Source: a virus
Lineage: Duplodnaviria; Caudoviricetes
Virus record (IMG/VR): IMGVR_UViG_3300021182_000057
Location: 1 to 31,919 of that record
Strand: one strand, 5' to 3'
Length of the DNA: 31,919 nucleotides
The notes under the pieces: model-generated
The model's database searches: none
The model's input: only the letters and a program-made list of their open reading frames with translations
What the model was told of the DNA's origin: nothing
Part shown: one piece after another, positions 6,405-31,919 of the stretch
Numbering within the stretch: position 1 is the stretch's first letter
Layout of the letters: each line of letters begins with the position of its first letter
Program-made: the position numbers and the translations under genes

Positions 6405-7400
6405 ATGGATAAGTCACTTAAAGATCGGTTCGCCAAACACATTTACAAATCACTCGAACGGCAACTCAAGAGGACCCAGGACCCAATCGTACTGTCTGAG
6501 GATATTGTGGATGCGGTTGAGTTGATCTACGATATTGTCCACGAGCAGGAGGGGATCGCTTCAGTCCCCACATCATTGCAGGGTCCCACGTTGGACCGCG
6601 CGGAAAGTTCTCGCGTCGATACCCCGCCTCCCCCAAGGGGGGCATTGGTCCATAAGGATGTCGCCACCGACCCCGGAGAGGCTAAGCCTGTAATACTGAT
6701 GCCGGGAGATCCTGGATTCAGCGATACCACTCCAAATGAAGTTGAGAGGAAGGTATTTTCCGCCGGCTCTGGAGTCAGAAGGAGAGCCACGTCTAACCCA
6801 AGGAAACCTTCCAATCTGGTTGAGACTCCGAAGTGGGACGTTTCCGACTTGATATCCCTGATCGACCAGAATACCCCGGATACTATCGAGTTCACCCCGG
6901 ATGGTATGGAAGGGTCGAAGGTCGTTATCGTGGCGCGCAAAAACATTCAGAACCAAGTTGGTATGGGAAGCGTACTGTTGACCTACAAGCACGCCGCCGT
7001 GGGGGATAATACTGGCGGAGGGGCAGTAGAAGGTAAAAGTGTGTCCCTTGGACTTCTGACTGCCCGAGTGCCGTTTAGCGTGTACGATGAGACTCAGGAC
7101 ATCGGGAACGCGATAGACGGCCCCAAGGGGATCACGGTGCAACTGAGGGGAATGTATAAGGCCCGTCCAGAGACCATGGAACCGTTTCTTTCCGGCTCCG
7201 CTCCGAGGTTGGGACCTGGTATGGCGGGAGTTGACCCGATGGGGGACTCGCTGGAGGAGAGGTTGACTCCTGGGCTCAAGTCCGTATCCGATCCATATGC
7301 CAGTAAAGGGGACGATTCCATACTTCGAGAGCACCTGTTGAACTTATCTAGATCGAACGCCGGCCTGGTCCCGTCAGGAAAGGGATCGAACTCTCGCTAA
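6405..7400 (+). CDS. Hypothetical protein (start uncertain, 6300 or 6405)
   Basis: Long ORF; AAGGA upstream of ATG 6405. Confidence 0.7.
   Translation: MDKSLKDRFAKHIYKSLERQLKRTQDPIVLSEDIVDAVELIYDIVHEQEGIASVPTSLQGPTLDRAESSRVDTPPPPRGALVHKDVATDPGEAKPVILMPGDPGFSDTTPNEVERKVFSAGSGVRRRATSNPRKPSNLVETPKWDVSDLISLIDQNTPDTIEFTPDGMEGSKVVIVARKNIQNQVGMGSVLLTYKHAAVGDNTGGGAVEGKSVSLGLLTARVPFSVYDETQDIGNAIDGPKGITVQLRGMYKARPETMEPFLSGSAPRLGPGMAGVDPMGDSLEERLTPGLKSVSDPYASKGDDSILREHLLNLSRSNAGLVPSGKGSNSR
6582..6597. promoter_or_regulatory. 16-bp palindromic site, copy 2 (intragenic)
   Basis: GGTCCCACGTTGGACC. Confidence 0.65.
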
Positions 7401-16982: not shown

Positions 16983-18224
16983 GTGGCACTCCAACTTACG
17001 GAGCTTGACGCCTACGTTTACGATCACATCGTCGATAAGACAACGGATTAAGAATCAGTCCCTTAGCGGAGTAATCCGCTTCGAATAACCCCGTGAATTG
17101 CTGGGAAACCTAAAGCCGACAGGGCCAAGGCAATCAGCAGCGAAGCCCAGAGATGGGAACGTTCAACGGCCATCGCCGGAAGGCGAGTAGGGTCAAGCGA
17201 CCCGAAGCGCGGGGCACCCCTTATGAGGGTGATGATATGGTCTGAGCTGCGGACGAAAGCCGCAGAAGGTCGGGAGTTAGCGATCCCGGTCGTAACACAA
17301 CTGATCATCTACGGTGCAGATCCAGCATTTACGCGCTTGAGTCAGCAGAATGCCGAGCGATTCAGTGGCAACAGCAGAATTCGCAGACCCGTGATCGTGG
17401 GCGAGCTCAACGGCGACTTCATGGGCAAGGGCGAGACCATGAACATCTCGTTCGTGACCACGGACGCGGCGATCACGGTGGACCTGAAGGTAGCGTGGGT
17501 AAATATCACGCTATACGGATGGGACGCGATGAACGACGACGGCCCGGAGGCGATTTTCAATCAGGTGGAGATGAAGTTTCTTAACGCCTCGTTGAAGATG
17601 GCCAAACTGCTCGCCGTCAACATGTACCAGAACGGCCAAGCCTCGACGGGCCGGCAGAAGTACTTGAACGGGTTTGCCGAGTGGTACGACGATGGCACCA
17701 ACTACCCAACGGTCGGCGGCCAGAACCGGACGGATATAAACGGCATCCCGAACGGCACGGTAGGCGGCTTGAACGCCTATCAGGCGACGCTGACGACGTT
17801 CACGTTGGCGCAACTCAATACAGCATACGGCAACGCGTGCTGGGGGTCGGATCACCCGGATATGATCGTCGCGACACAGAACGGCTGGAACTTGATCTGG
17901 CAGGGAACGCAGCCGGCGATGCGGTATGCTAACACCGACAACGACTTGGCTAACGTTGGATTCCAAAATTTCAAGTTCAACGCGGCCGACGTCGTGATTT
18001 CTCGGTACCTGCCGTCCGGGTCCTCGCCGATTGGGCAGATGTACGGATTGAATACCGCCTATATCGAGTGGTGGTTCTCGCAGGTTGACCTGTTCCAGTT
18101 TGGCTTTACGGGGTTCAAGGGCGTGAACAACTCGATCGATGTGAGCGGCCAGTTCATCTGCGGATCGAATTTGATGGTGCCTAGCCCCAGGACCGGGTTC
18201 GCTCTGCACTCAAGTCTTTTCTAA
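16983..18224 (+). CDS. Major capsid protein, two exons (16983-17048 and 17304-18224; 328 aa spliced)
   Basis: AGGAGG SD plus GTG start; exon 1 MALQLTELDAYVYDHIVDKTTD joins in frame to IIYGADPAFTRL; capsid-like segments NGFAEW, DHPDMIVAT, NVGFQNFKFNAA, MYGLNTAYI; follows the scaffold. Confidence 0.88.
17049..17303 (+). ncRNA. Group I self-splicing intron, 255 nt, no ORF
   Basis: 5' exon ends in U with P1 GGAU/GUCC (U17048.G17058 wobble); P3 CCCCGUG(17089)/CGCGGGG(17208); P AAUUGCUGGGAA; Q AAUCAGCAG; R GUUCAACGGCCA; S GAUAUGGUCU; terminal G17303; removal restores the frame. Confidence 0.9.
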
Positions 18225-20268: not shown

Positions 20269-22506
20269 ATGGCGGGGTATCCAGTAATGCGCGTAACATT
20301 CTGCAATACATCGTTGACTTTCGATCCTTGGGATTTCAGAAATCCGGACGATCCCGGAATTGGAGGGTCTGAGACCGCCGTAGTGGAATGCGCTAGGCGA
20401 CTGGCCTTGCGCGGACATGAGGTCACCGTGTATGGCACGCTAAGGGAGGATACTCCTTCTGAGTGGCAGGGAACGCGCTGGCTGCCACTTTCTGAGGCCG
20501 ATTACTCTCTCCCCGGATGGTGGTTTCTTTCCCGATGCCCGGAGACCCTGGACAACTTCTCAGTCGATCATCCCGGCCAAATGATTTGCCTGACCGCGCA
20601 AGATGTCTACTACCCACAATTAACCGATGAGCGATGGGAGAAGTTGGACCGCTTTATCGCTCTCTGCCCAACGCATGTGAGATTCACTAAAGATAAATAC
20701 CCCAAGTACGCTCACAAAGTGTTTGGCGGATTCAATGGGATCAGGAACGACGTAATCCGGGAGATTGAGTCCGTCAACCCGCCGGTCAGAAACCCACGGA
20801 AGATAATCTTCGCGTCTTCACCGGATCGTGGGCTTTTACCGCTTCTGAAAATATTCAGGCGAGCGCGTCAGAGGGTCCATGATCTTGAATTGGTAGTGGC
20901 CTATGGGTTCGACAACATCGAGAAGATCATCGCGTCGAACCCGCCGACGAACCACTGGAGAACCATCTACGATGAGGCTATGCGTGAGATGCGTCAGCCG
21001 GGGGTCACGTGGATGGGGAGGATCGGACAGAGGCAGTTGATTCGCGAGAAACTGTCCTGCGGGATGAGTGTTCACCCGACGATGTTCATGGAGACGGGAT
21101 TTATCTCAGGGATAGAGGAAATGGCCTGCGGAGCGATCCCGATCCTCAGTCCGACGTGGGCGGCGGGGGATTACTGCAAACACGGGGTATGGATTTTTGG
21201 CGATCCCGACGACGCACTCACCCAAGCTCGGTACGTCGGGGAAATCTTCAGGCTCGCGAGGCAGCCTGAACTTCAGGAACATATTCGCGCGGAAATGATG
21301 CCGCGAGCGAGAAATGCATTCAATTGGGAGCGCTATGTGGATCTGGTGGAATCCTGGATGTACGGGTTGGAGGGCCACCGCAATAGTTTCTTTCAGTTCA
21401 ACTTTGCGCTGAAGCACGCCAAGGGGGCGGGTAGAATCCTTAACGTAGGGTGCTGCGACGATGCGGGTGAGATGAGCAAGATCGGGGCCGTTAATGTTGA
21501 CAAGTTCGAGTTTGACGATCACCTGAAGACGCGGAACGCGGCGGACATTATCTCGGATGCGCGAGATCTTCCCCGACCGTTCCAGTCGCACTCATTCGAT
21601 ATGGTCTGTTCCACGGACATGCTGGAGCATTTTCCAACCGACGAGGTTCCGGAGCAATTGGAGAAATTTAAGGCGTGCTTGAAGCCGGGTGGTCGGATTC
21701 TCTTCACGGTCCCGAACGACACGCGGAATCCCAACCCAGACGACACCAATGTTCGTGGGTACGGAGGGCATCATCATTGCCCTCCGGAGGTGATTGATCG
21801 CTGGTTACGCGATGCTCGATTGAGGGCTGTAGTGCGACAGCCTATCGAATATGGATTCGATGATATATGCGGGGAGGGTGTCGTGGCGGTGGATGACTCC
21901 CCTAAGCACTCTGTGGTGTTCCTTACTTACGACCCCGATGGCAAGATGAAAGAGATGGTTGAGCGGAGCCTGTCTTTGATACGGCAGCATGCGCCGGGGG
22001 TAGAAATCATCATAGCGGACGATAAGGGAAAGTGCGCTGCGATCAATAACGGATTCGCAAAGACTAAAGGGGAGTACATCCATGTAGTTTGCAACGACAT
22101 GATGATTCATGACCCGGACTGGCTGGAAACGATGGCTGTTCCGAATACGCTGACTGGATGGGCGCCCAGGACGTTCGTGCTGACGGGACAGATTCTTCCC
22201 GAGATGTCTTTGTTTTGTGTCCCGAGGAATATCTACGAGGCCATCGGAAGAGTAGTATGGGATACTGCGTACGAGGATGGGTATGGTTTTGACGATGAGT
22301 CCTTGATCGCCCGCGTCAAATTAGCTGGGTTCAACGTAGAGATTCGGCCGGTGAAGGGGGATCACTTGTGTCTCCAGACCCACAAGAACTATTTCACGTC
22401 GGAAAAGTTCGGTCAAATGTATGATCGAAATATGGAGGTGTTCAAGAGGGAGTTCGACCACATAAAGCCTGTCGGCGGATGGCTCAACTATAAGAGGCCG
22501 GCATGA
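20269..22506 (+). CDS. Tri-domain protein: GT4-like glycosyltransferase + class I SAM methyltransferase + GT2-like domain
   Basis: GIGGSET, IIFASSPDRGL, ETGFISGIEEMACG; ILNVGC...DMLEH...LKPGG; CAAINNG...VCNDM...YGFDD. Confidence 0.88.
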   Translation: MAGYPVMRVTFCNTSLTFDPWDFRNPDDPGIGGSETAVVECARRLALRGHEVTVYGTLREDTPSEWQGTRWLPLSEADYSLPGWWFLSRCPETLDNFSVDHPGQMICLTAQDVYYPQLTDERWEKLDRFIALCPTHVRFTKDKYPKYAHKVFGGFNGIRNDVIREIESVNPPVRNPRKIIFASSPDRGLLPLLKIFRRARQRVHDLELVVAYGFDNIEKIIASNPPTNHWRTIYDEAMREMRQPGVTWMGRIGQRQLIREKLSCGMSVHPTMFMETGFISGIEEMACGAIPILSPTWAAGDYCKHGVWIFGDPDDALTQARYVGEIFRLARQPELQEHIRAEMMPRARNAFNWERYVDLVESWMYGLEGHRNSFFQFNFALKHAKGAGRILNVGCCDDAGEMSKIGAVNVDKFEFDDHLKTRNAADIISDARDLPRPFQSHSFDMVCSTDMLEHFPTDEVPEQLEKFKACLKPGGRILFTVPNDTRNPNPDDTNVRGYGGHHHCPPEVIDRWLRDARLRAVVRQPIEYGFDDICGEGVVAVDDSPKHSVVFLTYDPDGKMKEMVERSLSLIRQHAPGVEIIIADDKGKCAAINNGFAKTKGEYIHVVCNDMMIHDPDWLETMAVPNTLTGWAPRTFVLTGQILPEMSLFCVPRNIYEAIGRVVWDTAYEDGYGFDDESLIARVKLAGFNVEIRPVKGDHLCLQTHKNYFTSEKFGQMYDRNMEVFKREFDHIKPVGGWLNYKRPA

Positions 22507-23672
22507 GAACGGCCACATTGGTAGTCACTACCATCAACGACCCGCTGGTATTGGAGTCGTACGGGAAAAACTTTGACGATTACGGACATCTGGAACAGGT
22601 GCGGGTAATCGTCATCCCGGACAGGAAAACACCTCCGGCGGCTTTTTCCACGTGCGGTAGGTTGCGGGACGCCGGATTGAAAGTATTGTGTCCAACGTTG
22701 GACGACCAAGATAGATTCCTGAACCGTCTTGGCCTCACTCCCGACTTCATCCCATACAACTCAGACAACCGACGTAACGTTGGGTACTTGATGGCGCTGG
22801 AAGACCATTCAGATTTCCTGATTTCAATCGACGACGATAACTGGTGCCGGGGAGATTCGGACTATTTCGGGGAACACGAATATGGATTATTTGGGACAGT
22901 AAAGTCGGAGGTGTCATCGGGGCCGGCAAGATTCCTCAATCCGATCCATCCGATGGGATGGTATGGGACTTCCTGTCCGGTGTATGCTCGCGGGTTCCCA
23001 TACTTCGCTCGATTTGTAGATGGCGAGTCGCAGGTGTCGGCCGTAAGTCCAAACGCACCTATAGATGTGGCTATTAGTGCCGGGCTATGGCTTCGAGATC
23101 CCGACGTAGATGCAATGACATGGCTGTCGGCTAAGCCCCGGTTAGATTCAGTGGTGTCGCAGATTGAGGTTAATGCAATTGACGGCGGCAGGGTTGTTTT
23201 GGGCGATACAATGTGGGCTCCCGTAAACTCCCAAAACACCGCCATCGCCAGGAAGTTGATCCCGTCATATTACTTCCTTCGTATGGGATACCCTATAAAA
23301 GGAACCAGGGTAGGTCGCATGGGGGATATATTCTCTGGATATTTCGCCTTGGCTTGCGCTAAAGCTGTCGGATGTTCGGCCTGTTTCGGGAAGCCTCTTG
23401 TGGACCATCGCAGGAACAGCCACGACTACCTCAATGACCTATCTTCCGAACTCCCAGCGATTATGATGCTGGATAATATCCTGCCGTGGCTGATCGATCT
23501 GAAGCTAGATTCTAGCGATGTGGGGAGCGCCTATCTATCCCTTTCGGATTCGCTGGATTCTCAGGCTGAGCGATTTTCCGGTAGCGTGTGGGACGACGCG
23601 ACTCGCGGGTTCATTCATCAAATGGCCTACCTGATGAGGGTTTGGCTGGATGCCGTTAGGAGGATCGGGTGA
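22503..23672 (+). CDS. STELLO / reversibly glycosylated polypeptide (GT75)-like glycosyltransferase or NDP-sugar mutase
   Basis: VVTTIN, PDRKTP, RRNVGYL, IDDDN, GLWLRDPDVDA, PVNSQNT, RMGDIFSGY, HRRNSHDYLNDL. Confidence 0.8.
   Translation: MRTATLVVTTINDPLVLESYGKNFDDYGHLEQVRVIVIPDRKTPPAAFSTCGRLRDAGLKVLCPTLDDQDRFLNRLGLTPDFIPYNSDNRRNVGYLMALEDHSDFLISIDDDNWCRGDSDYFGEHEYGLFGTVKSEVSSGPARFLNPIHPMGWYGTSCPVYARGFPYFARFVDGESQVSAVSPNAPIDVAISAGLWLRDPDVDAMTWLSAKPRLDSVVSQIEVNAIDGGRVVLGDTMWAPVNSQNTAIARKLIPSYYFLRMGYPIKGTRVGRMGDIFSGYFALACAKAVGCSACFGKPLVDHRRNSHDYLNDLSSELPAIMMLDNILPWLIDLKLDSSDVGSAYLSLSDSLDSQAERFSGSVWDDATRGFIHQMAYLMRVWLDAVRRIG
22689..22704. promoter_or_regulatory. 16-bp palindromic site, copy 6 (intragenic)
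   Basis: TGTCCAACGTTGGACG with a perfect 14-bp palindromic core. Confidence 0.7.
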
Positions 23673-24328
23673 TCTCGGTTCTCAGCCCAACTATTCGAGG
23701 GCTGCAAGCCCTGCGTCCAATTGAGCAGTCGCTGAATGCCCAATCGTTCACTGATTGGGAATGGCTGGTCGAGTTCGGAAACGGCCGAGAGCACTCCCTG
23801 AATAGGGACTTCAACTCCATGCTTCGCCGCGCTCGCGGGGAACTGGTAGTGTTCGCCGAGGATTGGGTCTGGTTCCCTCTCGATGGCTTAGAGAGATTCT
23901 GGGATGCATATCGGGCCATGCCGCAGTGCTTCTTTACGGCTCCGGTTCCCAAGTCCCCGGCGTTCTGGGAGATGGATGGGAATCTGTTCTACAAGCATCC
24001 GCTTGAGTTGGAGTGGAGATCAGAAAATCCCGGATGGGTTCACTGGATGAATTGGGAGGCTGATTGGGCGGCGGCCCCTCTGGGGGTACTGAAGTCTATT
24101 GGTGGATTTGACGAGCGCATGGACCAGAAATGGTCGAACGACAATCAGAACGTATCGTTTCGGGCCTTCAGGGCCGGCTGTAAGTTTTGGAACGTCATTG
24201 ATAATCCGGCCGTCGCGCTTAGTCATGACAAGTACTGGAAGCATCCATTCCGCCACCTACACGATGCGGAGTGGAGCGAGCGTCAGATCAAGAGGTTTGA
24301 GAACGAGCAGTTGCCACCGCTGACATAA
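23669..24328 (+). CDS. GT2-like glycosyltransferase
   Basis: ISVLSPT, QSFTDWEW, ARGELVVFAED, IGGFDERM. Confidence 0.8.
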   Translation: MISVLSPTIRGLQALRPIEQSLNAQSFTDWEWLVEFGNGREHSLNRDFNSMLRRARGELVVFAEDWVWFPLDGLERFWDAYRAMPQCFFTAPVPKSPAFWEMDGNLFYKHPLELEWRSENPGWVHWMNWEADWAAAPLGVLKSIGGFDERMDQKWSNDNQNVSFRAFRAGCKFWNVIDNPAVALSHDKYWKHPFRHLHDAEWSERQIKRFENEQLPPLT

Positions 24329-24339
24329 ACGGAGAATCG

Positions 24340-25041
24340 ATGTTAATTCAGAAAAATCTAATTGGGACTATCGGCGTGATGGGGGCGGTTCCTTCGGTCC
24401 CTTGGGAGTTCTGTTGGTCTCTGGCCCAGATGATTCAATATAACTCCGAGTTTATGTGCGGTCCGGGAGAATATATCCACCTGATGTGCCCGAGCACATC
24501 GTACCATTCCACAGCCAGGAACCAGCTCGCCGCAGGGTTCATGGGGGAATGGCTGTTTATGATGGACACCGACCACGCCTTCGACCCCGACATATTACTC
24601 CGCATGCTAATGCTGGTTAAACTCCATAACGTCGATGTCCTATCAGCCCTGTATCGGTACAAGGTATACCCTTATCTTCCGGTGGCCTTCCACTGGAACG
24701 AAGAAACGCAGGGGTTTGTTGGCATCGCGGAACTGGATTGGAACGCCATGATCCAAGAGGTGTCGTGCGTGGGAGCGGGGTGCCTCCTAGTAAGACGCGG
24801 GGCATTCGACCGGATCAGGGAGGAACTTCACGAGCAGCCGTTCGACATTATCCATCCATGGTCGGAGGATTTTTCTTTTTTTGTGCGCCTGCGGAAGTTG
24901 GGGATTAAGTCTTGTATATCACCTCTGATCGAAAGCTACCACTTGAACACTCATCGCGTTACGAGTTCGGATTACGATAGAAGCGCGGTCCAGACATACC
25001 CAATCCCATCCGGTGGCGAGATGGTGGTAGGGAAGGCGTAA
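24340..25041 (+). CDS. GT2-like (GT-A fold) glycosyltransferase
   Basis: ARNQL, WLFMMDTD, VGAGCLLVRR, SEDFSFF. Confidence 0.82.
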   Translation: MLIQKNLIGTIGVMGAVPSVPWEFCWSLAQMIQYNSEFMCGPGEYIHLMCPSTSYHSTARNQLAAGFMGEWLFMMDTDHAFDPDILLRMLMLVKLHNVDVLSALYRYKVYPYLPVAFHWNEETQGFVGIAELDWNAMIQEVSCVGAGCLLVRRGAFDRIREELHEQPFDIIHPWSEDFSFFVRLRKLGIKSCISPLIESYHLNTHRVTSSDYDRSAVQTYPIPSGGEMVVGKA

Positions 25042-25063: not shown

Positions 25064-25232
25064 ATGATTTGCATACTTTATCGCGGGAGTTGGGCGAGCG
25101 GGGGGAGCTTGGCGAGCCGGGCGAGTTGGGCGAGCGGGGCGAGCGGGGCGAGTTGGGCGAGCGGGGCGAGCAGGGCGAGTTGGGCGAGCGGGGCGAGTTG
25201 GGCGAGCAGGGGGAGCAGGGCGAGTTGGGTGA
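25064..25232 (+). repeat. Head + 9-mer array element, copy 1 (16 units)
   Basis: ATGATTTGCATACTTTATCGCGGGA followed by tandem GGCGAG(TTG/CGG/CAG/CCG/CTT). Confidence 0.95.
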
Positions 25233-25258
25233 TAACAAGAACCTAAAGGAGAGGCGTA

Positions 25259-25669
25259 ATGAGCGCGGATTTAACAATTCATGTGTTCGAAGGTATCGCC
25301 GAACACGACCTAGAAACTTTCTTTTCGGCAACACTCGGTAGCAAGTACCATCACGGAGGCGTGAAACAAGGAATATGGGAAGAGTCCTATCGGAAGATCT
25401 CCCGTACACCCTCCGTTTGGGTCGGCCAGGTCTCTTGGCTGAAGTGTGCACTATCCAATGATCCGGATACCTACGTCCCAGGACCAGTAGAGGCTATCAG
25501 TGAATTGGTCGGGGAAGACCTCCCAGCCATAGATGATTTATTCATCTCTCGGGCTGCCGAAGCGATGGCGCTCGCTAATTCGACATCGTACAGTGTAGCC
25601 AAACCTGGAGATGTTGTCGAGTTCCTGCAAACACACAAAGGAAAACGGGTGTTCACGGTTAGTTGGTGA
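25259..25669 (+). CDS. Hypothetical protein
   Basis: AAGGAGAGG SD; globular-looking ORF. Confidence 0.7.
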   Translation: MSADLTIHVFEGIAEHDLETFFSATLGSKYHHGGVKQGIWEESYRKISRTPSVWVGQVSWLKCALSNDPDTYVPGPVEAISELVGEDLPAIDDLFISRAAEAMALANSTSYSVAKPGDVVEFLQTHKGKRVFTVSW

Positions 25670-25684
25670 CAAGGATACGAAAAT

Positions 25685-26245
25685 ATGACAATTGTTCAGC
25701 GTGCGATCATCACACATCCAGACGGGAAGCGCGAGATGCTTTCCTTGTTCCGCGTGGAGCCTACCGTATTCCGCTGGATTGATCATGGAAAACCGTGGGA
25801 TGGCATCGATTTTATTGAGGCCAATATGGCCATCAAGAGCCTCCGTATGACGATCGAATCCAACCCATCCTACGTCGGGTACGATCTGACCTTTTATGCC
25901 GTGGAACCGCCGCCGGCAGAGAGGGCATCGCTACGAATCGGGGAACTTCCCGCTGGATTGACGCTCCCGATAGACTCAGTAGCTCGCATTATCCAGGAAG
26001 AGACCGGCATCGACAATCTCATTGAGTCGATCAACCTGCTCTTAACTTACGAGTTTCCGAGGCGCCTCCAGCCGAAACCGCCAGGGCTTGATCTCACTTG
26101 GGGTGGCCTATGCCTCTCGGTAATCGAGGCTTTGGAGGTCGCACAGAAATCCAACCTAGGGAATCTCAAGGCCGAACTTTCCAAGGGGATCGAGAAGATC
26201 CATGCCTATTCGAACATGCCAAATCGCGGAGGTAAACCGCAGTGA
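25685..26245 (+). CDS. Hypothetical protein
   Basis: AAGGA SD; operonic. Confidence 0.65.
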   Translation: MTIVQRAIITHPDGKREMLSLFRVEPTVFRWIDHGKPWDGIDFIEANMAIKSLRMTIESNPSYVGYDLTFYAVEPPPAERASLRIGELPAGLTLPIDSVARIIQEETGIDNLIESINLLLTYEFPRRLQPKPPGLDLTWGGLCLSVIEALEVAQKSNLGNLKAELSKGIEKIHAYSNMPNRGGKPQ

Positions 26246-26403
26246 TTGTTGACATTACCACCTTCACTGAACCCTCCGACCCAGACTTTGAAGAGGTTAG
26301 CGGTCTAGCACTTGCCGGACTTTCGCTGGAGGAAATGCGGCGATACTGGGCCTTGCGTCACCCATCCAATAAACCTCTTGACTCTAGCAAAGAGTCGGCG
26401 TAG
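26242..26403 (+). CDS. Small hypothetical protein (53 aa)
   Basis: GGAGG SD, GTGA overlap; not in the ORF track. Confidence 0.45.
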   Translation: MIVDITTFTEPSDPDFEEVSGLALAGLSLEEMRRYWALRHPSNKPLDSSKESA

Positions 26404-26406
26404 AAT
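26378..26406 (+). promoter_or_regulatory. Sigma70-type promoter of the recombination operon
   Basis: TTGACT-N17-TAGAAT. Confidence 0.75.
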
Positions 26407-26419
26407 CACGAAAGAGATC

Positions 26420-26435
26420 AGTCCAACGTTGGACA
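26420..26435. promoter_or_regulatory. 16-bp palindromic site, copy 7
   Basis: AGTCCAACGTTGGACA, 13 nt downstream of the -10 box. Confidence 0.75.
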
Positions 26436-26451
26436 ATAAGGAGAGACGACA

Positions 26452-28317
26452 TTGAGCGCACCATCGCATCCCGAACAGAGTACGGAAGTAACCGCGTCGC
26501 AGTCATCCGTCGAAGTTCCGATTGAGGTACTCCGCTACAAAGAGGAACTCGCTTCCAAAATGGGGCTTCCTAGCCCCTACGGCATGAGCCTACTGAAGCA
26601 ATACTGTGAGGACCTCGTAGCCTCCGGCATGGTCCCATCGTACTTCAACAAGAACCCCATGGCCGTATACACCGCCGCCATGCGCGGGCGGGAGATGGGC
26701 CTAGATCCCACCGAATCCATCATGGAGACTTTCTGGCCTGCCCCAGGCGGAAAGTTAGGCATCTACGCGAATAAACTTCTAGACTTGCTCCATCGGGGCG
26801 GAGTCACAAGCAAGTTCATCTGCGAGACAAGGGAGCGCTGTGAGATCCTCTTTACGCCTCCAAACAAACACGAGCCCTACACGGCCGTGTTCGACTTTTC
26901 CGAAGCTGTTTCGGCCGGTCTGGTGAAGCCCGACGGAAACTACAAGAAATGGCCGTCCGATATGTGCAAGGCCCGCGCCATTGCTCGCGGAGCAAGAGCG
27001 CTTATCGGGACCTATAAGGGATCGGCTAATATTTACGTGAAGGAGGAGTTGGAGGATCTCGACTCCCCATCCGACACCGCCGAGTCCGACCGGAATCGCG
27101 CCGATACCATCGCAGCGCGGGAGGATATGAAGGTCGCCCTCAAGCCAAAAGCGGAAAAGAGACCCGCTAAATCCGAGGTGGTCGAGATCAAGTACCAGCC
27201 AGAGAATCCGACAACTGAAGCGCCAGCGGAGCCCAATACTCCCGTCCCACCCGCAGAGGCTACTCACACCGAAGAAACCCCGGAGGGGGATGCCGCGAGG
27301 CAACCCCAGAATCAGGAGCCGACAAAGTATGTCATCCATCGAGTGTTTTCGACTGGCAATGACAAGGAACGAGTGTTACCAACCGAAGAGTTGCCCGACT
27401 CACGGGAAGAAATGGCTAGTATCAGGGCGCAGGCACTCGCGAATGAAAACAGCGCCTCATTCATCGTTTTCGAAGTGAGCGGATCTGGGGGGCCTCGGCA
27501 AGTGGGCCGGTTCGATCCCCCGAAGCCCATCAAGCACCCCGATAAGCCCCGAGGGAACCCAGTAGCTGATTCGGCGGGATCAACCCCCACTCAAGACAAC
27601 CAGACCACCCAAGAAGAGCATGTTTTGGACCCAAGAAAGGCCCTGATTGATCGGCTCACCCCTCTGTCTGCCTCTCTGAATCTGAATGGAAAGACGGCCA
27701 TGGCGAGATTTCGTGCTTTCTTTTCTGGCTATTTTGGGTTGGGACTTTCAGAACTTCCGAAAAATCCGGCTGACTATACAGTAGCCATTGAGGAACTGGA
27801 AGCGTGCATTAGCGGGGATGCGCTGGAATTCAGCGCCGGGCCGGAAGAGGCCGGCAAGCGGAGGGCATCTTGGGCGCGAGAAACGCGCGGAAATCTGGAA
27901 GCGCAATGGCCGAACGACCCAAAGAATGTGTCTCTTGGAGTCACCTTGGCTCGCCGCTGGATGCTTTCCCCGCAGAATTTCATGAACTGGATGGGGCAGA
28001 AAGTAATCGGCCTCACGATCATGCCGCCAGAAGACGCAAACGCTTATATGCGACTCATGCTTGCGACCCCTGTCAGCCGTGACGGAGGGAAACTGCTTAC
28101 GTGCTGCCGGAAACACGACATCTCGATGGCGAAAGCGGTAGAGCAAATAGAATCCAGGGCGCTCAATGGGGCACTGGAACTATCGCAGGAGAAGGCCGTC
28201 CAGAACGCGATCGACGCTTGGATCTTGAACGTTAAGGAGTACGTTGGGAATTCTTCCGGCGCCGCCCAAGGTCCAGCGGCTAAGGAAGAGGATGGGCTGT
28301 TCGACGATTTGGTGTAG
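26452..28317 (+). CDS. RecT-like single-strand annealing protein with a long C-terminal extension
   Basis: ASGMVP...GREMGLDP...AGLVK...YKKWPSDMCKARAIARGAR; acidic tail EDGLFDDLV. Confidence 0.7.
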   Translation: MSAPSHPEQSTEVTASQSSVEVPIEVLRYKEELASKMGLPSPYGMSLLKQYCEDLVASGMVPSYFNKNPMAVYTAAMRGREMGLDPTESIMETFWPAPGGKLGIYANKLLDLLHRGGVTSKFICETRERCEILFTPPNKHEPYTAVFDFSEAVSAGLVKPDGNYKKWPSDMCKARAIARGARALIGTYKGSANIYVKEELEDLDSPSDTAESDRNRADTIAAREDMKVALKPKAEKRPAKSEVVEIKYQPENPTTEAPAEPNTPVPPAEATHTEETPEGDAARQPQNQEPTKYVIHRVFSTGNDKERVLPTEELPDSREEMASIRAQALANENSASFIVFEVSGSGGPRQVGRFDPPKPIKHPDKPRGNPVADSAGSTPTQDNQTTQEEHVLDPRKALIDRLTPLSASLNLNGKTAMARFRAFFSGYFGLGLSELPKNPADYTVAIEELEACISGDALEFSAGPEEAGKRRASWARETRGNLEAQWPNDPKNVSLGVTLARRWMLSPQNFMNWMGQKVIGLTIMPPEDANAYMRLMLATPVSRDGGKLLTCCRKHDISMAKAVEQIESRALNGALELSQEKAVQNAIDAWILNVKEYVGNSSGAAQGPAAKEEDGLFDDLV

Positions 28318-28322
28318 AGGCG

Positions 28323-28988
28323 ATGCCTATTCTAACATTCGACGAAGAGACCCACGCTTACCGACTCGATGGTCGATGGATTCCCGGATGCACGCGCATC
28401 CTGTCCGACATGGGATACGTAAGGGGGGCGGAGTATTTCACCGAAGAGTCCCGAGTCCGAGGCCGGCAGATCCACAGGGCATGTCACCTTGTGGATCTGC
28501 ATGCCCCGGAAGCGGAGACTCTCGAAGAGGTCCTAGACGTGATGGATCTCGGGACAACCATTCAACCATACGTGGCTGGATGGCTGTGGTTCAAGAGATC
28601 GACAGGGTTTGTCCCGGTCGGCCACGAGACGCCGCTCTACTTGGCAGACATGAACGTGGCCGGCACGCCGGACGTGTGGGGCTACTTCAGGTCAAACGCG
28701 AGAAGAACCGTGGTTGATCTGAAAAGTTGGAAGAGTCAGGGACCTAAGCCGAAGCGGGCATCCGAGTTACAAGTTAATGGCGGATACAAGCCCATGCTTC
28801 GACAGGCCGGATTCGACGCTCAGGATGCGGTGGTTGTGAAACTTCCTGGCGACGGGAGTTTTCGCCAATACCCATGCACAAACCCGCTGGACGAGGCTAT
28901 TTTTCGGTCATGCTGTTTTGTTTGGCATGACCGCGCTAACAACAAACTGATTGACGGTCTTGAGGGGCCGTCCGAAGTGGAGAACTAA
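28323..28988 (+). CDS. PD-(D/E)XK exonuclease (phage recombination nuclease-like)
   Basis: FDEETHAY...PGCTRIL, RGRQIH, AGTPD...VVDLKS, LQVNGGY. Confidence 0.8.
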   Translation: MPILTFDEETHAYRLDGRWIPGCTRILSDMGYVRGAEYFTEESRVRGRQIHRACHLVDLHAPEAETLEEVLDVMDLGTTIQPYVAGWLWFKRSTGFVPVGHETPLYLADMNVAGTPDVWGYFRSNARRTVVDLKSWKSQGPKPKRASELQVNGGYKPMLRQAGFDAQDAVVVKLPGDGSFRQYPCTNPLDEAIFRSCCFVWHDRANNKLIDGLEGPSEVEN

Positions 28989-29782
28989 TGCCAACGAATT
29001 CCACAGCCATCGTTCCATTCTCTGCCGCAACACTGAAGACGCAAGCTAAGCAGGTGAGCGTGCTTTTGGACGTGGATGTCCCCGCCCTGCAACTGGAGGT
29101 GGACAGTTATACAAATGGTCTTGCGACCATGCAGGTGCAGGCCAAAAATTTCAAGATATCCGACGACCAGGCCTACGCCGACGCCATGCAGTTAATGCGA
29201 ATAGCCCAAGAGCGGGAATCTGGACTTACAGAGGTGTGGAAGCGGTTCAAGGACGTAATCAACCCAGCGCGCAATACCATCCTTGAGTTGGAGCACTCCA
29301 CGGTAGACCCATTCACGGCTATCAAAAAAACCCTACAGTGGAAGGGAGAGAAGTATCTGAACGACAAGGCATACGCCAAAAAGCAGGCCGAGTCCGCATT
29401 TGCCAGAATCGCCGAAGAGGCCCGGCTGCGGCTTAACCAAGAAGCCGATGATCTGATGGCGCGCGGCCGTGTGACTGAGGCACAAGCCAAAACGTACGAG
29501 TCCGCTATCACTGTAACCCCCACCCTCCCCAACGCCGTGCCGACCGTATCCGACGCCAAGGTAGGGACGAGATCCACCGGATCTGTCACGGACCTCATAG
29601 CCTTTGCGAAAGCCATCGTAGAGGGACAAGTAGACCTCATGCAGGAGGTCAAACCAGGAGATTCCAGGCCGATTCTGATTGTGGATCAAGTCGTCCTCAA
29701 CGCGGTCGTATCCCGCCATCTGGACGGGTTGAACTGGCCCGGAATTACCGTCACTTTCAGCGCCAAGATATCATCCCGGTAG
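28988..29782 (+). CDS. Coiled-coil protein of the recombination module
   Basis: TAATG coupling; long helical region and a C-terminal WPGI motif. Confidence 0.65.
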   Translation: MPTNSTAIVPFSAATLKTQAKQVSVLLDVDVPALQLEVDSYTNGLATMQVQAKNFKISDDQAYADAMQLMRIAQERESGLTEVWKRFKDVINPARNTILELEHSTVDPFTAIKKTLQWKGEKYLNDKAYAKKQAESAFARIAEEARLRLNQEADDLMARGRVTEAQAKTYESAITVTPTLPNAVPTVSDAKVGTRSTGSVTDLIAFAKAIVEGQVDLMQEVKPGDSRPILIVDQVVLNAVVSRHLDGLNWPGITVTFSAKISSR

Positions 29783-29799
29783 CCACTCCTTTGAGTGGC

Positions 29800-30066
29800 A
29801 TGAATAGGAGTAGCAACGTGATAATTTACACCGAAGATCGCTTCCAGAATCCCAGTTCGAACGTGAAGCAGTTGGGCTATGACCGTGGCACCCAAACCGT
29901 CAGAGTTTCGTTCAAAAATAAAACTGGCTCGATCACGGCGGAATGGGACTATTGGCCAGTCCCGGAAGACCACTTCCTGAACGACATCATGGATGCCCCA
30001 TCCGTAGGAGTGGCTGTCAACCAGTACCTCATCAAGAGCACATGCGAACGGATAAAAGTTCGGTAG
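29800..30066 (+). CDS. KTSC-domain-like protein
   Basis: SSNVKQLGYD...VSFKN...YWPVP...APSVG...NQYL. Confidence 0.7.
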   Translation: MNRSSNVIIYTEDRFQNPSSNVKQLGYDRGTQTVRVSFKNKTGSITAEWDYWPVPEDHFLNDIMDAPSVGVAVNQYLIKSTCERIKVR

Positions 30067-30082
30067 TAAAAATAATAATTCC

Positions 30083-30147
30083 ATGATTTGCATACTTTAT
30101 CGCGGGATTTGGGCGAGCGGGGCGAGTTTGGCGAGTTGGGTGAGTTG
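30083..30147 (+). repeat. Head + 9-mer array element, copy 2 (5 units)
   Basis: Same 25-bp head followed by a short array. Confidence 0.92.
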
Positions 30148-30156
30148 GTAGACCTT

Positions 30157-30306
30157 ATGATTTGCATACTTTATCGCGGGAGTTGGGCGAGCCGGGCGAG
30201 CTTGGCGAGCTTGGCGAGCGGGGCGAGTTGGGCGAGCAGGGCGAGCAGGGCGAGCAGGGCGAGCAGGGCGAGTTGGGCGAGCGGGGCGAGTTGGGCGAGC
30301 AGGGCG
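30157..30306 (+). repeat. Head + 9-mer array element, copy 3 (14 units)
   Basis: Same head, different order of units. Confidence 0.95.
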
Positions 30307-30404
30307 GTATCACGGTCCCTATGCTATACCGATGGTTCGTATAAGTAGTCCTTATGTTTATCTCCATCTTATTGTTGGTGATATTATTCGTATAGGAGGA
30401 ACTG

Positions 30405-30689
30405 ATGGAAGGACTTTCGATTGGACGGATCGTCAACTATTCAATCCATGAATCGGACCTGAACGAAACCCAGAAGTCGCACGTTGGGGAGGTCATCGCG
30501 GCATTGGTGGTTAAGGTCTGTAACGAAGACGGGATTGTCAACCTGACCCTGTTCCCGGACTGGTCTAATAGCGGATTCCTCACGTATGGGAGCGCCACTC
30601 CGCAACCACTGGGGATTTCATGGAAGACCTCTGTCGAGTACTCCGAGGATCATTCTCCCGGCAAGTGGTCGTGGCCGTTGAGGAAATAA
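30405..30689 (+). CDS. Small phage protein (SIGRIVNY...WSWP)
   Basis: AGGAGG SD; motif type common in phage late regions. Confidence 0.7.
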   Translation: MEGLSIGRIVNYSIHESDLNETQKSHVGEVIAALVVKVCNEDGIVNLTLFPDWSNSGFLTYGSATPQPLGISWKTSVEYSEDHSPGKWSWPLRK

Positions 30690-30692
30690 ACT

Positions 30693-31856
30693 ATGTCTCT
30701 TTCTCTTTGGGATGCACGCGGACAGGTTCGGGAAATATGCCCACGCCCCGAGTCCCTTGTCACGACGGTGTTGAACCGTAGAATTCGGAATGTCATCGAT
30801 ACCCGTACGTGGTCCGATCTGATCCGAATGGGTATGATCGTCATACCGCAGCAGTACACCACGGGGACGGTAAGCCTTACTTCTGGCTCTAACCAAGTGA
30901 TCGGAGTCGGTACAGCGTGGCCGGTAAATGACGCCGTTAATACGGTTATCGCTTCCCCCATTGTGGATTCTCCAGGAGTTGTCGAGATCCAGCCGGCATC
31001 ATTATCCGGGATCACGCAGGGGTCTTATCTGCTGCTGGACCAGGAAACACCAGGGGCAACCGAGATCATCAGTGTTCAGGGAATAAGGGGAAGCAGGTTT
31101 ATCGCGTACTGCCAAAATCAGCACGCGTCTGGTCTCTCTCTTCAGAGGTCTAGCTTGTCCGGGCTTCAATTTGGCACGGGAAATTACGTTCCTACAGTGC
31201 AGGCCGTGACGTCTCCGACTACCCTCCAAGTGGATATGCCCTACGGTGGCGTGGCGCAGAATGCAATCTCGTACCAGATTTACATGCTCTACGTGAAGCC
31301 TTCCCCGTCTGGATCGACGATTCCAAGTTCTACCGCTCGAAGGATGCTCTACGCCTACGACGCCATAGCAGGCAACCCAATTGGAACGGACAAGACATGG
31401 GACTGGATAATGCTCGCCGATCCACAACTTCAGAACACGGGAGATCCTGAGGAGTTGGTGAGCACTCCGCACGATGCGGGTGGCGCGATGCAGTGGACCT
31501 TATGGCCTATCCAGACCGGACCCTACGCGATTGGGGTGATCTACCAGGACGGATGGCCGACGCTAAAACAGCCGAATGATCTCCTGCCGCCATTCATTAA
31601 CCCAGAGGTTTTCATCGCGGGAGCTATCGCGGACTGTATGCGCGCTACCGTGATTTCGAACGATCGGCAAAAGGACCCTTACCATGATCCACAGGGGGCG
31701 GCGTATTGGGACAAGGAGTACCTAGCACTGCTTGAGGCGGCAACGCAGAGCGACCAAGGGAGGTGGATGACCAATTTGAAGTCGTATGAGGAGCAGATGG
31801 CCGCGTTCTCCCCAGATTACAACTGGGCGAGAGCCCATGCGGTCATGGCACCGTAA
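30693..31856 (+). CDS. Putative head-tail adaptor / tail tubular protein with an inserted beta domain
   Basis: N-terminal helices...TWSDL, YTTGTVSLTSGSNQVIGVGTAW, LWP, C-terminal helix YWDKEYLALL. Confidence 0.55.
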   Translation: MSLSLWDARGQVREICPRPESLVTTVLNRRIRNVIDTRTWSDLIRMGMIVIPQQYTTGTVSLTSGSNQVIGVGTAWPVNDAVNTVIASPIVDSPGVVEIQPASLSGITQGSYLLLDQETPGATEIISVQGIRGSRFIAYCQNQHASGLSLQRSSLSGLQFGTGNYVPTVQAVTSPTTLQVDMPYGGVAQNAISYQIYMLYVKPSPSGSTIPSSTARRMLYAYDAIAGNPIGTDKTWDWIMLADPQLQNTGDPEELVSTPHDAGGAMQWTLWPIQTGPYAIGVIYQDGWPTLKQPNDLLPPFINPEVFIAGAIADCMRATVISNDRQKDPYHDPQGAAYWDKEYLALLEAATQSDQGRWMTNLKSYEEQMAAFSPDYNWARAHAVMAP

Positions 31857-31864
31857 GTATTCCC

Positions 31865-31919
31865 ATGATTTGCATACTTTATCGCGGGAGTTGGGCGAGC
31901 GGGGCGAGCCGGGCGAGCA
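31865..31919 (+). repeat. Head + 9-mer array element, copy 4 (truncated by the window end)
   Basis: Same head 8 nt after a stop codon; array runs off the end. Confidence 0.92.

Follow-up and report, generated by a model that had tools for sequence, protein, structure and literature searches.

What is the short repeat that recurs between genes of a tailed phage, and why does it stand where blocks of genes meet? The question arises from viral record IMGVR_UViG_3300021182_000057, whose whole 31.9-kb contig (positions 1 to 31,919) is hereinafter referred to as the window, and in which a 25-nt head runs four times into a tandem array of nine-base units. We lean, with modest confidence, towards the reading that head plus array is a likely micro-gene of the (Ser-X)n class, located at five module joints, where it supplies homology for crossovers, probably made by a RecT-like protein and an exonuclease, that invert and permute the modules.

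The window was compared with a second viral contig of the same phage (G001, 51 kb, 65% complete), a complete relative without the element (G002, 96.5 kb), viral and metagenome loci (L-numbers), and sequencing runs seen as k-mer contigs (X-numbers). Terminase, major head protein, RecT-like, and exonuclease genes were annotated in the window. Runs labelled as peat or permafrost metagenomes contained at least half of the searched stretch in 16 of 24 rows. The modules are abbreviated as GT (glycosyltransferase gene), R (recombination block, including the gene KTSC), A (94-aa gene and adaptor), Re (tail-side genes), H (helicase), M (region of the 110-aa gene M110), and T (a reverse-strand block with an amidase).

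Structure, reading frame and kinship of the element

Four exact 25-nt heads were found, all on the + strand (Table 1), as described in the original prediction, and any match to the head was obtained in 0 of 100 shuffles. The numbers of units behind the heads were confirmed as well, and a period of 9 was dominant in the arrays (autocorrelation of 0.78 at lag 9 vs. 0.43 at lag 5). Three copies had been placed shortly past a stop codon, and the upstream open reading frame (ORF) indeed ended 22, 16, and 8 nt before the heads of copies 1, 2, and 4, respectively; copy 3 began 5 nt past the stop closing the ATG-frame ORF of copy 2. Copy 4 was identical to the element ahead of the tail genes in G001, L096, and L098.

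Two features had been overlooked: a T replaces G immediately behind the head in copy 2, and the head opens with an ATG, giving a second frame, Ser-X-Ala. In this frame, every copy reads MICILYRG-(Ser-[Trp/Gly/Arg/Leu]-Ala)n. Unit statistics were obtained from 16 distinct arrays with 155 units, after duplicates and the first array of L096, which contained indel errors, were dropped. The first codon was AGC or AGT (Ser) in 151 of the 155 units and the third was GCG in 126, with Trp (55), Gly (42), Arg (35), and Leu (23) as the X residue. There were 18 unit types, five of which made up 115 units; no unique spacers and no Rfam match were found in the elements, in agreement with the earlier statement that the arrays are not CRISPR.

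At each of the five left flanks that bear a head, the ATG was located 0–22 nt past a stop; the ATG frame stopped within four codons of the array end at five of six right flanks. This stop proximity (P ~7e-4 for a fixed frame) was weighed lightly, because two of the flanks are related to each other and near stops are met in another frame as well. Six of the seven G-quadruplex (G4) motifs on the + strand of the window fell in arrays. The element RNA had no significant fold (z -0.47), and no promoter- or terminator-like site was found at any head. Judged from the sequence, the element is likely a micro-gene that would be translated in the ATG frame; variable micro-peptides, one of the roles proposed for it earlier, fit the data in this Ser-X-Ala frame.

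A widespread family offered a counterpart. An 87-aa gene of G002 had 716 homologues, a family that we take to be Sm-like; a Pfam match was obtained for 0 of 60 members. As outside loci, 80 of 263 viral relatives of this gene were used, 70 of them distinct. A run of at least four Ser-X units was found behind the partner gene in 61 of the 70, X being nearly always Gly, Arg, or Trp, and an ATG lay within -10 to +8 of the upstream stop in 45/50. Serine was encoded by TCN only in 48 loci and by AGY only in 13, and 885 of 945 X codons were NGG. In ten outside genomes, the array was present at one locus (eight genomes) or at two loci within approximately 1 kb (two genomes), and three were split over both contig ends. 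Among L120 to L199, 14 of the 70 distinct loci ended no more than 150 nt past the stop of the partner gene, and three of five such genomes checked carried the array at both contig ends. (Ser-X)n arrays commonly break assemblies.

In the outside arrays (n=48), the non-synonymous base before GG was far more variable than the synonymous third base of Ser (1.46 vs. 0.16 bits), an order that held in 47 of 48, and the entropy of this phage's arrays peaked at the same base (1.55 bits). Such a pattern is odd for neutrally evolving coding DNA and leaves a nucleotide-level role open. The variable letters of nine arrays matched known phage DNA no better than shuffles.

According to these features, the element looks like a 9-nt variant of the phage (Ser-X)n micro-genes. 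Both have a short ATG head, Ser alternating with Trp, Gly, Arg, or Leu, and a hypervariable base before GG; in both, the start codon lies close past the upstream stop (here 0–22 nt at five left flanks) and tandem copies are chained stop to start. They differ in period, which is 9 (Ser-X-Ala) here and 6 there, and in location, identical copies being dispersed over both genome arms here and confined to one locus there. Moreover, the partner gene is here only a lead, M110: in L094, a headless array abuts this gene and chains into the headed copy before R, which makes the M110 locus a candidate home locus of the element. M110 gave an Atlas lead of 0.87 to a DUF6948 cluster (178 shared features), and had one near-identical homologue only and no viral locus. 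In the literature, no paper on DUF6948 was found, nor a relevant one on serine-rich or hexanucleotide phage micro-genes. Just upstream of M110 (L094, 4408–6507), a gene pair encoding an AAA ATPase and a DUF2201 metallopeptidase/VWA protein was observed, which was not found in G002.

Occurrence, joints and exchange between copies

A search for the head had been suggested in the original prediction. The 18-nt head core was found in two viral contigs, both from this phage, and at 29 metagenome loci, ten of which (on nine contigs) carried head and array; the other 19 were chance matches with no array and were dropped. The 22-nt head had 0 matches in the bacterial and archaeal genome collection, and the relatives lacked the head. 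Across the viral contigs, metagenomes, and genome collection searched, full heads were thus seen only in this phage. The ten metagenome loci with a full head showed five left and six right flanks. A scan of viral contigs for the array pattern returned 67 loci, including one from this phage; most of the remainder, when inspected, proved to be homogeneous repeats or Gly-Glu-X frames that stay open over a long distance, and such a head was absent from them.

Relatives of the 387-aa protein (68–75% identity) were encoded at six viral loci, three of which were mapped (L109, L110, and L113) and carried GT, the 94-aa gene, the adaptor, and the tail-side genes in this order without elements. GT orthologues (69–77% identical) lay directly before the 94-aa/adaptor genes in L109, and with a short insert in L113. 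In G002, where the best match to the head had 9 mismatches of 25, the late genes were on one strand, and the opposite strand carried a homologue of one M-region gene, then R, then H. Because relatives keep the ancestral order without the head, the element is, on this comparison, a recent lineage-specific addition at the joints between GT and A, A and Re, M and R, R and H, and probably H and T. The sole tie between T and G002 was a match of 33 aa. Scans of viral contigs for the flanks of M and T gave 0 matches, so that the rest of this phage's genome was not seen. A 9-mer array at the matching spot of G002 proved to be a coding Ala-Trp repeat inside a 259-aa gene, and 30-mer arrays of G002 were also coding; both were rejected as homologues. 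Further, a gene with 10-residue repeats occurred twice in G002 (56.4–56.9 kb and 69.4–69.8 kb; L117 and L118), in opposite orientation around a 13-kb segment, and this pair is a possible inversion substrate.

The joints at which copies were located are those of GT, the adaptor, the recombination block, the helicase, and M/T. On the left, five unique flanks were distinguished (the ends of GT, KTSC, the adaptor, the H cassette, and M), and on the right another five (R, A, Re, H, and T); a 5-nt linker often chained two copies at a joint. Eight joints were resolved within one contig: GT to R (window and G001), KTSC to A (window), KTSC to Re (G001), A to A (L089), GT to T (L106), M to R (L094), and A to Re (L096). 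Six of the eight were non-ancestral. A ninth, A to Re in the window, is suggested by array identity. With copies at five module joints and several flank pairings in contigs, the data fit the option of recombination joints that had been listed among the roles of the element.

In L089, found as one contig only, the adaptor end was joined to the module start, its two ends lying 36 nt apart on the window. The genes of module A had no match in the 51 kb of G001 (65% complete), either at the matching place or elsewhere. In six of seven DNA runs, the M, T, and helicase flanks were present as loose ends (X16 had only T), and in those six runs the depths of GT, R, and A were alike (e.g., 17.8/17.8/15.9 and 13.1/12.8/12.8), these values not being copy numbers. 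From the similar depths and the presence of these flanks, the modules therefore look moved, not lost. Contigs of the RNA run X17 covered GT, R, and A in part, with none listed for the arrays, and this run was uninformative either way. On the reverse strand of L088 (approximately 75–410), between helicase and head, about 300 bp without a long ORF was bounded by two related hairpins and abutted the head; the hairpins resemble what we take to be IS200/IS605 ends.

The local sequence is not an assembly artefact, a possibility that the original prediction had kept, since a k-mer contig of X1 covered 25182–30157 with 0 differences and G001 repeated array 1 with one single-nucleotide polymorphism (SNP). 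As far as alleles are concerned, copies do exchange sequence, because the T variant moved and whole arrays were replaced up to the flank. The T-variant head stood behind KTSC in the window, G001, and X1 and behind the linker in L094, and L093 had G after KTSC. Before R, X1 and X2 carried the same array allele (0 differences from 25182), and X6, X7, and X9 carried a second one (15–17 other letters over the contig, several inside the array). Before A, the window and L089 agreed in their array allele, and a different one was present in L100 and the runs. Array prefixes were common by left flank and suffixes by right flank, and alleles at the same flank differed between near-identical strains. The module orders, read from flank pairings in contigs, are putative as real molecules.

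Proposed mechanism and competing explanations

We propose that the element arose beside the small gene M110, and that the RecT-like protein and exonuclease use head plus array as homology. Because the two genome arms are opposed, crossovers between copies on different arms would invert the intervening DNA with no gene loss, and the recombination, adaptor, and helicase modules would be permuted by such inversions. Co-oriented copies may yield circles or duplications, and slippage may alter the unit number. An inversion model was consistent with this scheme, all modules being kept: the window and G001 were each two inversions, and the L094/L106 assembly one, from the presumed ancestral order. 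This fit is parsimonious but weak.

Regarding the proposed catalyst, three PHROGs of single-strand annealing proteins (SSAPs) matched the N-terminal 283 aa of the RecT-like protein, and a PDB sequence search gave no match. The pairing minimum of Red-beta is quoted as 23–27 bp, and Rad52-like phage recombinases act on short, diverged homology (PMC3945230). The exact stretches common to copies within the window (25–48 nt) are at or above that quoted minimum. A search of the window, G001, and G002 gave no tyrosine recombinase (PF00589), serine recombinase (PF00239), or reverse transcriptase, the genome of this phage being incomplete, and no target-site duplication was present at five joints.

Several observations weigh against recombination between micro-gene copies as proposed. 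It does not account for how copies came to stand at five unrelated sites with a left edge that is exact to the ATG. As many as 48 isomers can be reached by the inversion model, which makes its fit weak evidence, and the model does not produce the L089 joint, for which a circle or duplication is needed. Mis-joins are possible, since elements in one assembly have exact stretches of 62–74 nt in common and the window stops 55 nt past a head start, presumably at the branch stop of a k=55 assembly; no joint was bridged by k-mer contigs of the runs examined. The ancestral joints M to R and H to T are based on short homologies. Kinship of M110 was unsupported by hhalign (probability 0.3%) and by Pfam (no match above cut-off), its fold model was poor (pLDDT 52), and Foldseek on this poor model was empty. 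As for translation, a frame other than the ATG frame likewise meets stops near four of six array ends, and no evident ribosome-binding site was found ahead of the heads.

Part of this evidence would also be expected if the elements were real and traded array content by gene conversion and slippage, module order were fixed, and the non-ancestral joints, including those of the window, were short-read mis-joins. Exact shared stretches of 36–74 nt, a linker-head node that appeared as a 53–55 nt contig at approximately 2–3 times single-copy depth, the ends of the window and L001 at 55 and 59 nt past the head start, respectively, and several contigs ending within arrays all agree with this explanation, which we nevertheless consider rather unlikely. 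It requires six of the eight resolved joints to be wrong, one of them identically in two assemblies. Moreover, L089 links the adaptor-end prefix to the adaptor-start suffix across 105 nt, a GAA variant of the adaptor-end prefix was found directly behind the head only at that flank (L089 and L096), and real exchange between copies is evident in the replacement of entire arrays as far as the flank and in the displaced T variant. That the arrays instead act as nucleic acid, either as a G-rich R-loop/G-quadruplex or as a periodic track (possibly an RNA that carries a code) to which an Sm-like ring binds, focusing breaks or silencing at joints, appears distinctly unlikely. The greater variability of the base before GG in 47/48 outside arrays and its peak in this phage's own arrays, the predominance of NGG among X codons (885/945), and the G4 motifs (6/7 in arrays) would suit such a role, whereas the retention of Ser through two disjoint codon families (48 TCN-only and 13 AGY-only; a partly circular point, as Ser runs were selected), variable letters in nine arrays that matched known phage DNA no better than shuffles, and the lack of a stable RNA fold (z -0.47) and of a promoter at the head argue against it. 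A more elaborate version seems to us slightly more doubtful still: the arrays would carry a code of one variable base per unit, read as RNA or DNA by an Sm-like ring, and would have spread to the joints as a five-site, recombinase-free shufflon, a selected switch moving core replication, recombination, and virion genes between the early and late arms. A Chi- or KOPS-like signal, also proposed in the original prediction, was not borne out with the known Chi- and KOPS-type motifs: those of E. coli did not occur in the arrays, though such consensus motifs may not be those of the host, and the B. subtilis Chi motif occurred nine times in the arrays and was unskewed elsewhere (49 vs. 44).

An exact left edge at five unrelated flanks with ragged right ends, absence from relatives, and one copy abutting a presumed IS605-like hairpin end in L088 would also be expected of a non-autonomous mobile element whose 5' end is fixed and whose repeat tail is ragged, mobilized by an enzyme in trans, with rearrangement as a by-product. 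This is very unlikely, given that no target duplication was seen at five joints, that the 22-nt head had 0 matches in bacterial and archaeal genomes and full heads occurred only in this phage, and that the window, G001, and G002 yielded no reverse transcriptase, integrase, or resolvase (this phage's genome being partial). With no target duplication and none of these enzymes in the three records, a mobile element with its own enzyme likewise received no support. Least credible, to the point of being scarcely tenable, is the collagen-like Gly-Glu-X peptide that the original prediction had read from the arrays. The common variants at GGN and GAR positions are synonymous in that frame; however, its only start is TTG, it runs 35 and 65 codons beyond two arrays, Gly-Glu is broken by GAC and GGG variants in L100 and L099, and it is the ATG frame that matches a widespread family.

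The element is real and lineage-specific, and probably represents a form of module shuffling mediated by repeats, for which a micro-gene class not described before has been put to use. Provided that the joints are real, phages of a natural population move core genes (head-tail adaptor, RecT block, and helicase) between early and late arms by way of a tiny repeated element, evolution by 'linker sequences' has been caught at >99% identity, and the common, undescribed (Ser-X)n phage micro-genes gain a first testable role at the DNA level. A non-synonymous base approximately nine times more variable than a synonymous one poses a concrete question. As a practical warning, the gene order of contigs and apparent gene loss in such phages may stem from these elements.

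Neighbouring genes and comparison with known systems

The copies and the genes around them are listed in Table 1. The 387-aa protein of module A was assigned through an Atlas score of 0.97 to clusters in which 37% of members carried SU10_adaptor (PF24175).

Table 1. Copies of the repeat element and associated genes in the window.
Feature	Position	Strand	Description
Copy 1	25064..25246	+	25-nt head, 16 units, 60-codon ORF in ATG frame; same array with one SNP in G001
Copy 2	30083..30151	+	Head with the T variant behind it; 5 units, closed by an in-frame stop (22 codons); joined to copy 3 through a 5-nt linker
Copy 3	30157..30348	+	Head, 14 units (to ~30306), 63-codon ORF in ATG frame
Copy 4	31865..31919	+	Head, at least 3 units; cut by contig end exactly 55 nt after head start
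GT	24340..25041	+	Glycosyltransferase family 2 gene (Pfam PF00535); its end is left flank La of copy 1, the fixed end of the late arm
Module R	25259..30066	+	Recombination block: genes of 136 and 186 aa, RecT-like gene, two exonuclease-like genes, and KTSC; in G002 located on the early arm beside the helicase
RecT-like SSAP	26452..28317	+	PHROG 4171 (E 1.4e-11); putative catalyst of the exchanges
Exonuclease	28323..28988	+	PHROG 298 (E 1.1e-9); likely partner of the RecT-like protein
Module A	30405..31856	+	94-aa gene and 387-aa probable head-tail adaptor; 68–75% identical in relatives

Other features of the window were also observed. A 14-bp near-palindrome was present at positions 6583, 11424, 13934, 20239, 22690, and 26421, mostly between genes or at gene boundaries, and was kept in relatives (L078 at 276, 2304, and 14535; 17 sites in G002); it is likely the operator of a family-wide regulator, distinct from the repeat element. 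A group I intron (Rfam RF00028, 66.2 bits) was found at 17039–17265, at the start of the major head protein gene, whose called ORF aligned to relatives from residue 19–25 onward only. The 360 bp at 282–641 corresponded to approximately 2 kb in G001 (527–2488), and this substitute held a 258-aa ORF that, judged by eye, looks like a DNA methyltransferase. Behind the capsid block, four genes (20269–25041), three with glycosyltransferase-, methyltransferase-, or RGP-like Pfam matches, were largely kept in relatives and are possibly involved in virion glycosylation.

Repetitive extragenic palindromic (REP) sequences, miniature inverted-repeat transposable elements (MITEs), and insertion sequences are characterized by target duplication, a stem-loop or terminal inverted repeat, and copies in host genomes. 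The original prediction had kept a match to a REP/MITE family of the host in view; no duplication, no significant fold, and 0 genome matches for the 22-nt head were found here. Shufflons and integrons use a tyrosine or serine recombinase and a fixed crossover point. PF00589 or PF00239 was present in none of the three records, this phage's genome being incomplete, and the array mosaics switched at different units, which argues against one fixed point. Literature searches found no description of this element.

CRISPR and TIGR arrays have unique spacers and periods of 60–79 or 18 nt (bioRxiv 10.64898/2026.10.21.760802), in contrast to the few recurring unit types and period of 9 found here; the methods of that report drop clusters with a period that is a multiple of 3 and a lag-3 peak. 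In VIPR vrRNA arrays, fixed GG-containing motifs likewise alternate with variable bases, but these are alternating GGY/NN motifs with a period of 5, compared with a period of 9, few unit types, and no self-target found here (bioRxiv 10.64898/2026.04.26.720920). For the Burkholderia jumbo phage Matilda, genome isomers have also been proposed to form by homologous recombination across inverted repeats, with two terminal segments and four isomers (bioRxiv 10.64898/2026.10.21.760668); here, the joints are internal, short, and five in number, and the model allows up to 48 isomers. The PeSL cassettes of the T4-type phages RB49 and phi1 are intergenic, short, and conserved, and recombination between them shuffles genes and gives rise to mini-circles (PMC2839356), and L089 looks like a 1.66-kb adaptor circle or tandem duplication. 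However, PeSLs are sigma70-like promoters and terminator stem-loops around non-essential ORFans (PMC2839356), whereas neither a promoter nor a terminator nor a fold was found at the heads here, and the genes that would be shuffled belong to the core.

In the Campylobacter group II phages CP21, CP220, and CPt10, the repeat regions RR1 to RR4 are dispersed, mostly extragenic, and unit-variable, and split the genome into modules. Among close phages these modules vary in order and orientation, contigs break at the repeat regions, and core genes have been moved (PMC4546147). Those regions are 1–2.9 kb long and bipartite, with 72–86 bp units and modules of 28–55 kb (PMC4546147). The elements described here are 55–200 nt long and G-rich, with a fixed head, 9-nt units, and an ATG-started frame, and the modules (1.6–5 kb), whose order was read from contigs alone, include the recombination genes themselves. 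The element is not VIPR, CRISPR, TIGR, or REP/MITE and, while it fails the structural definitions of the Campylobacter repeat regions and PeSLs, it resembles both in its proposed working.

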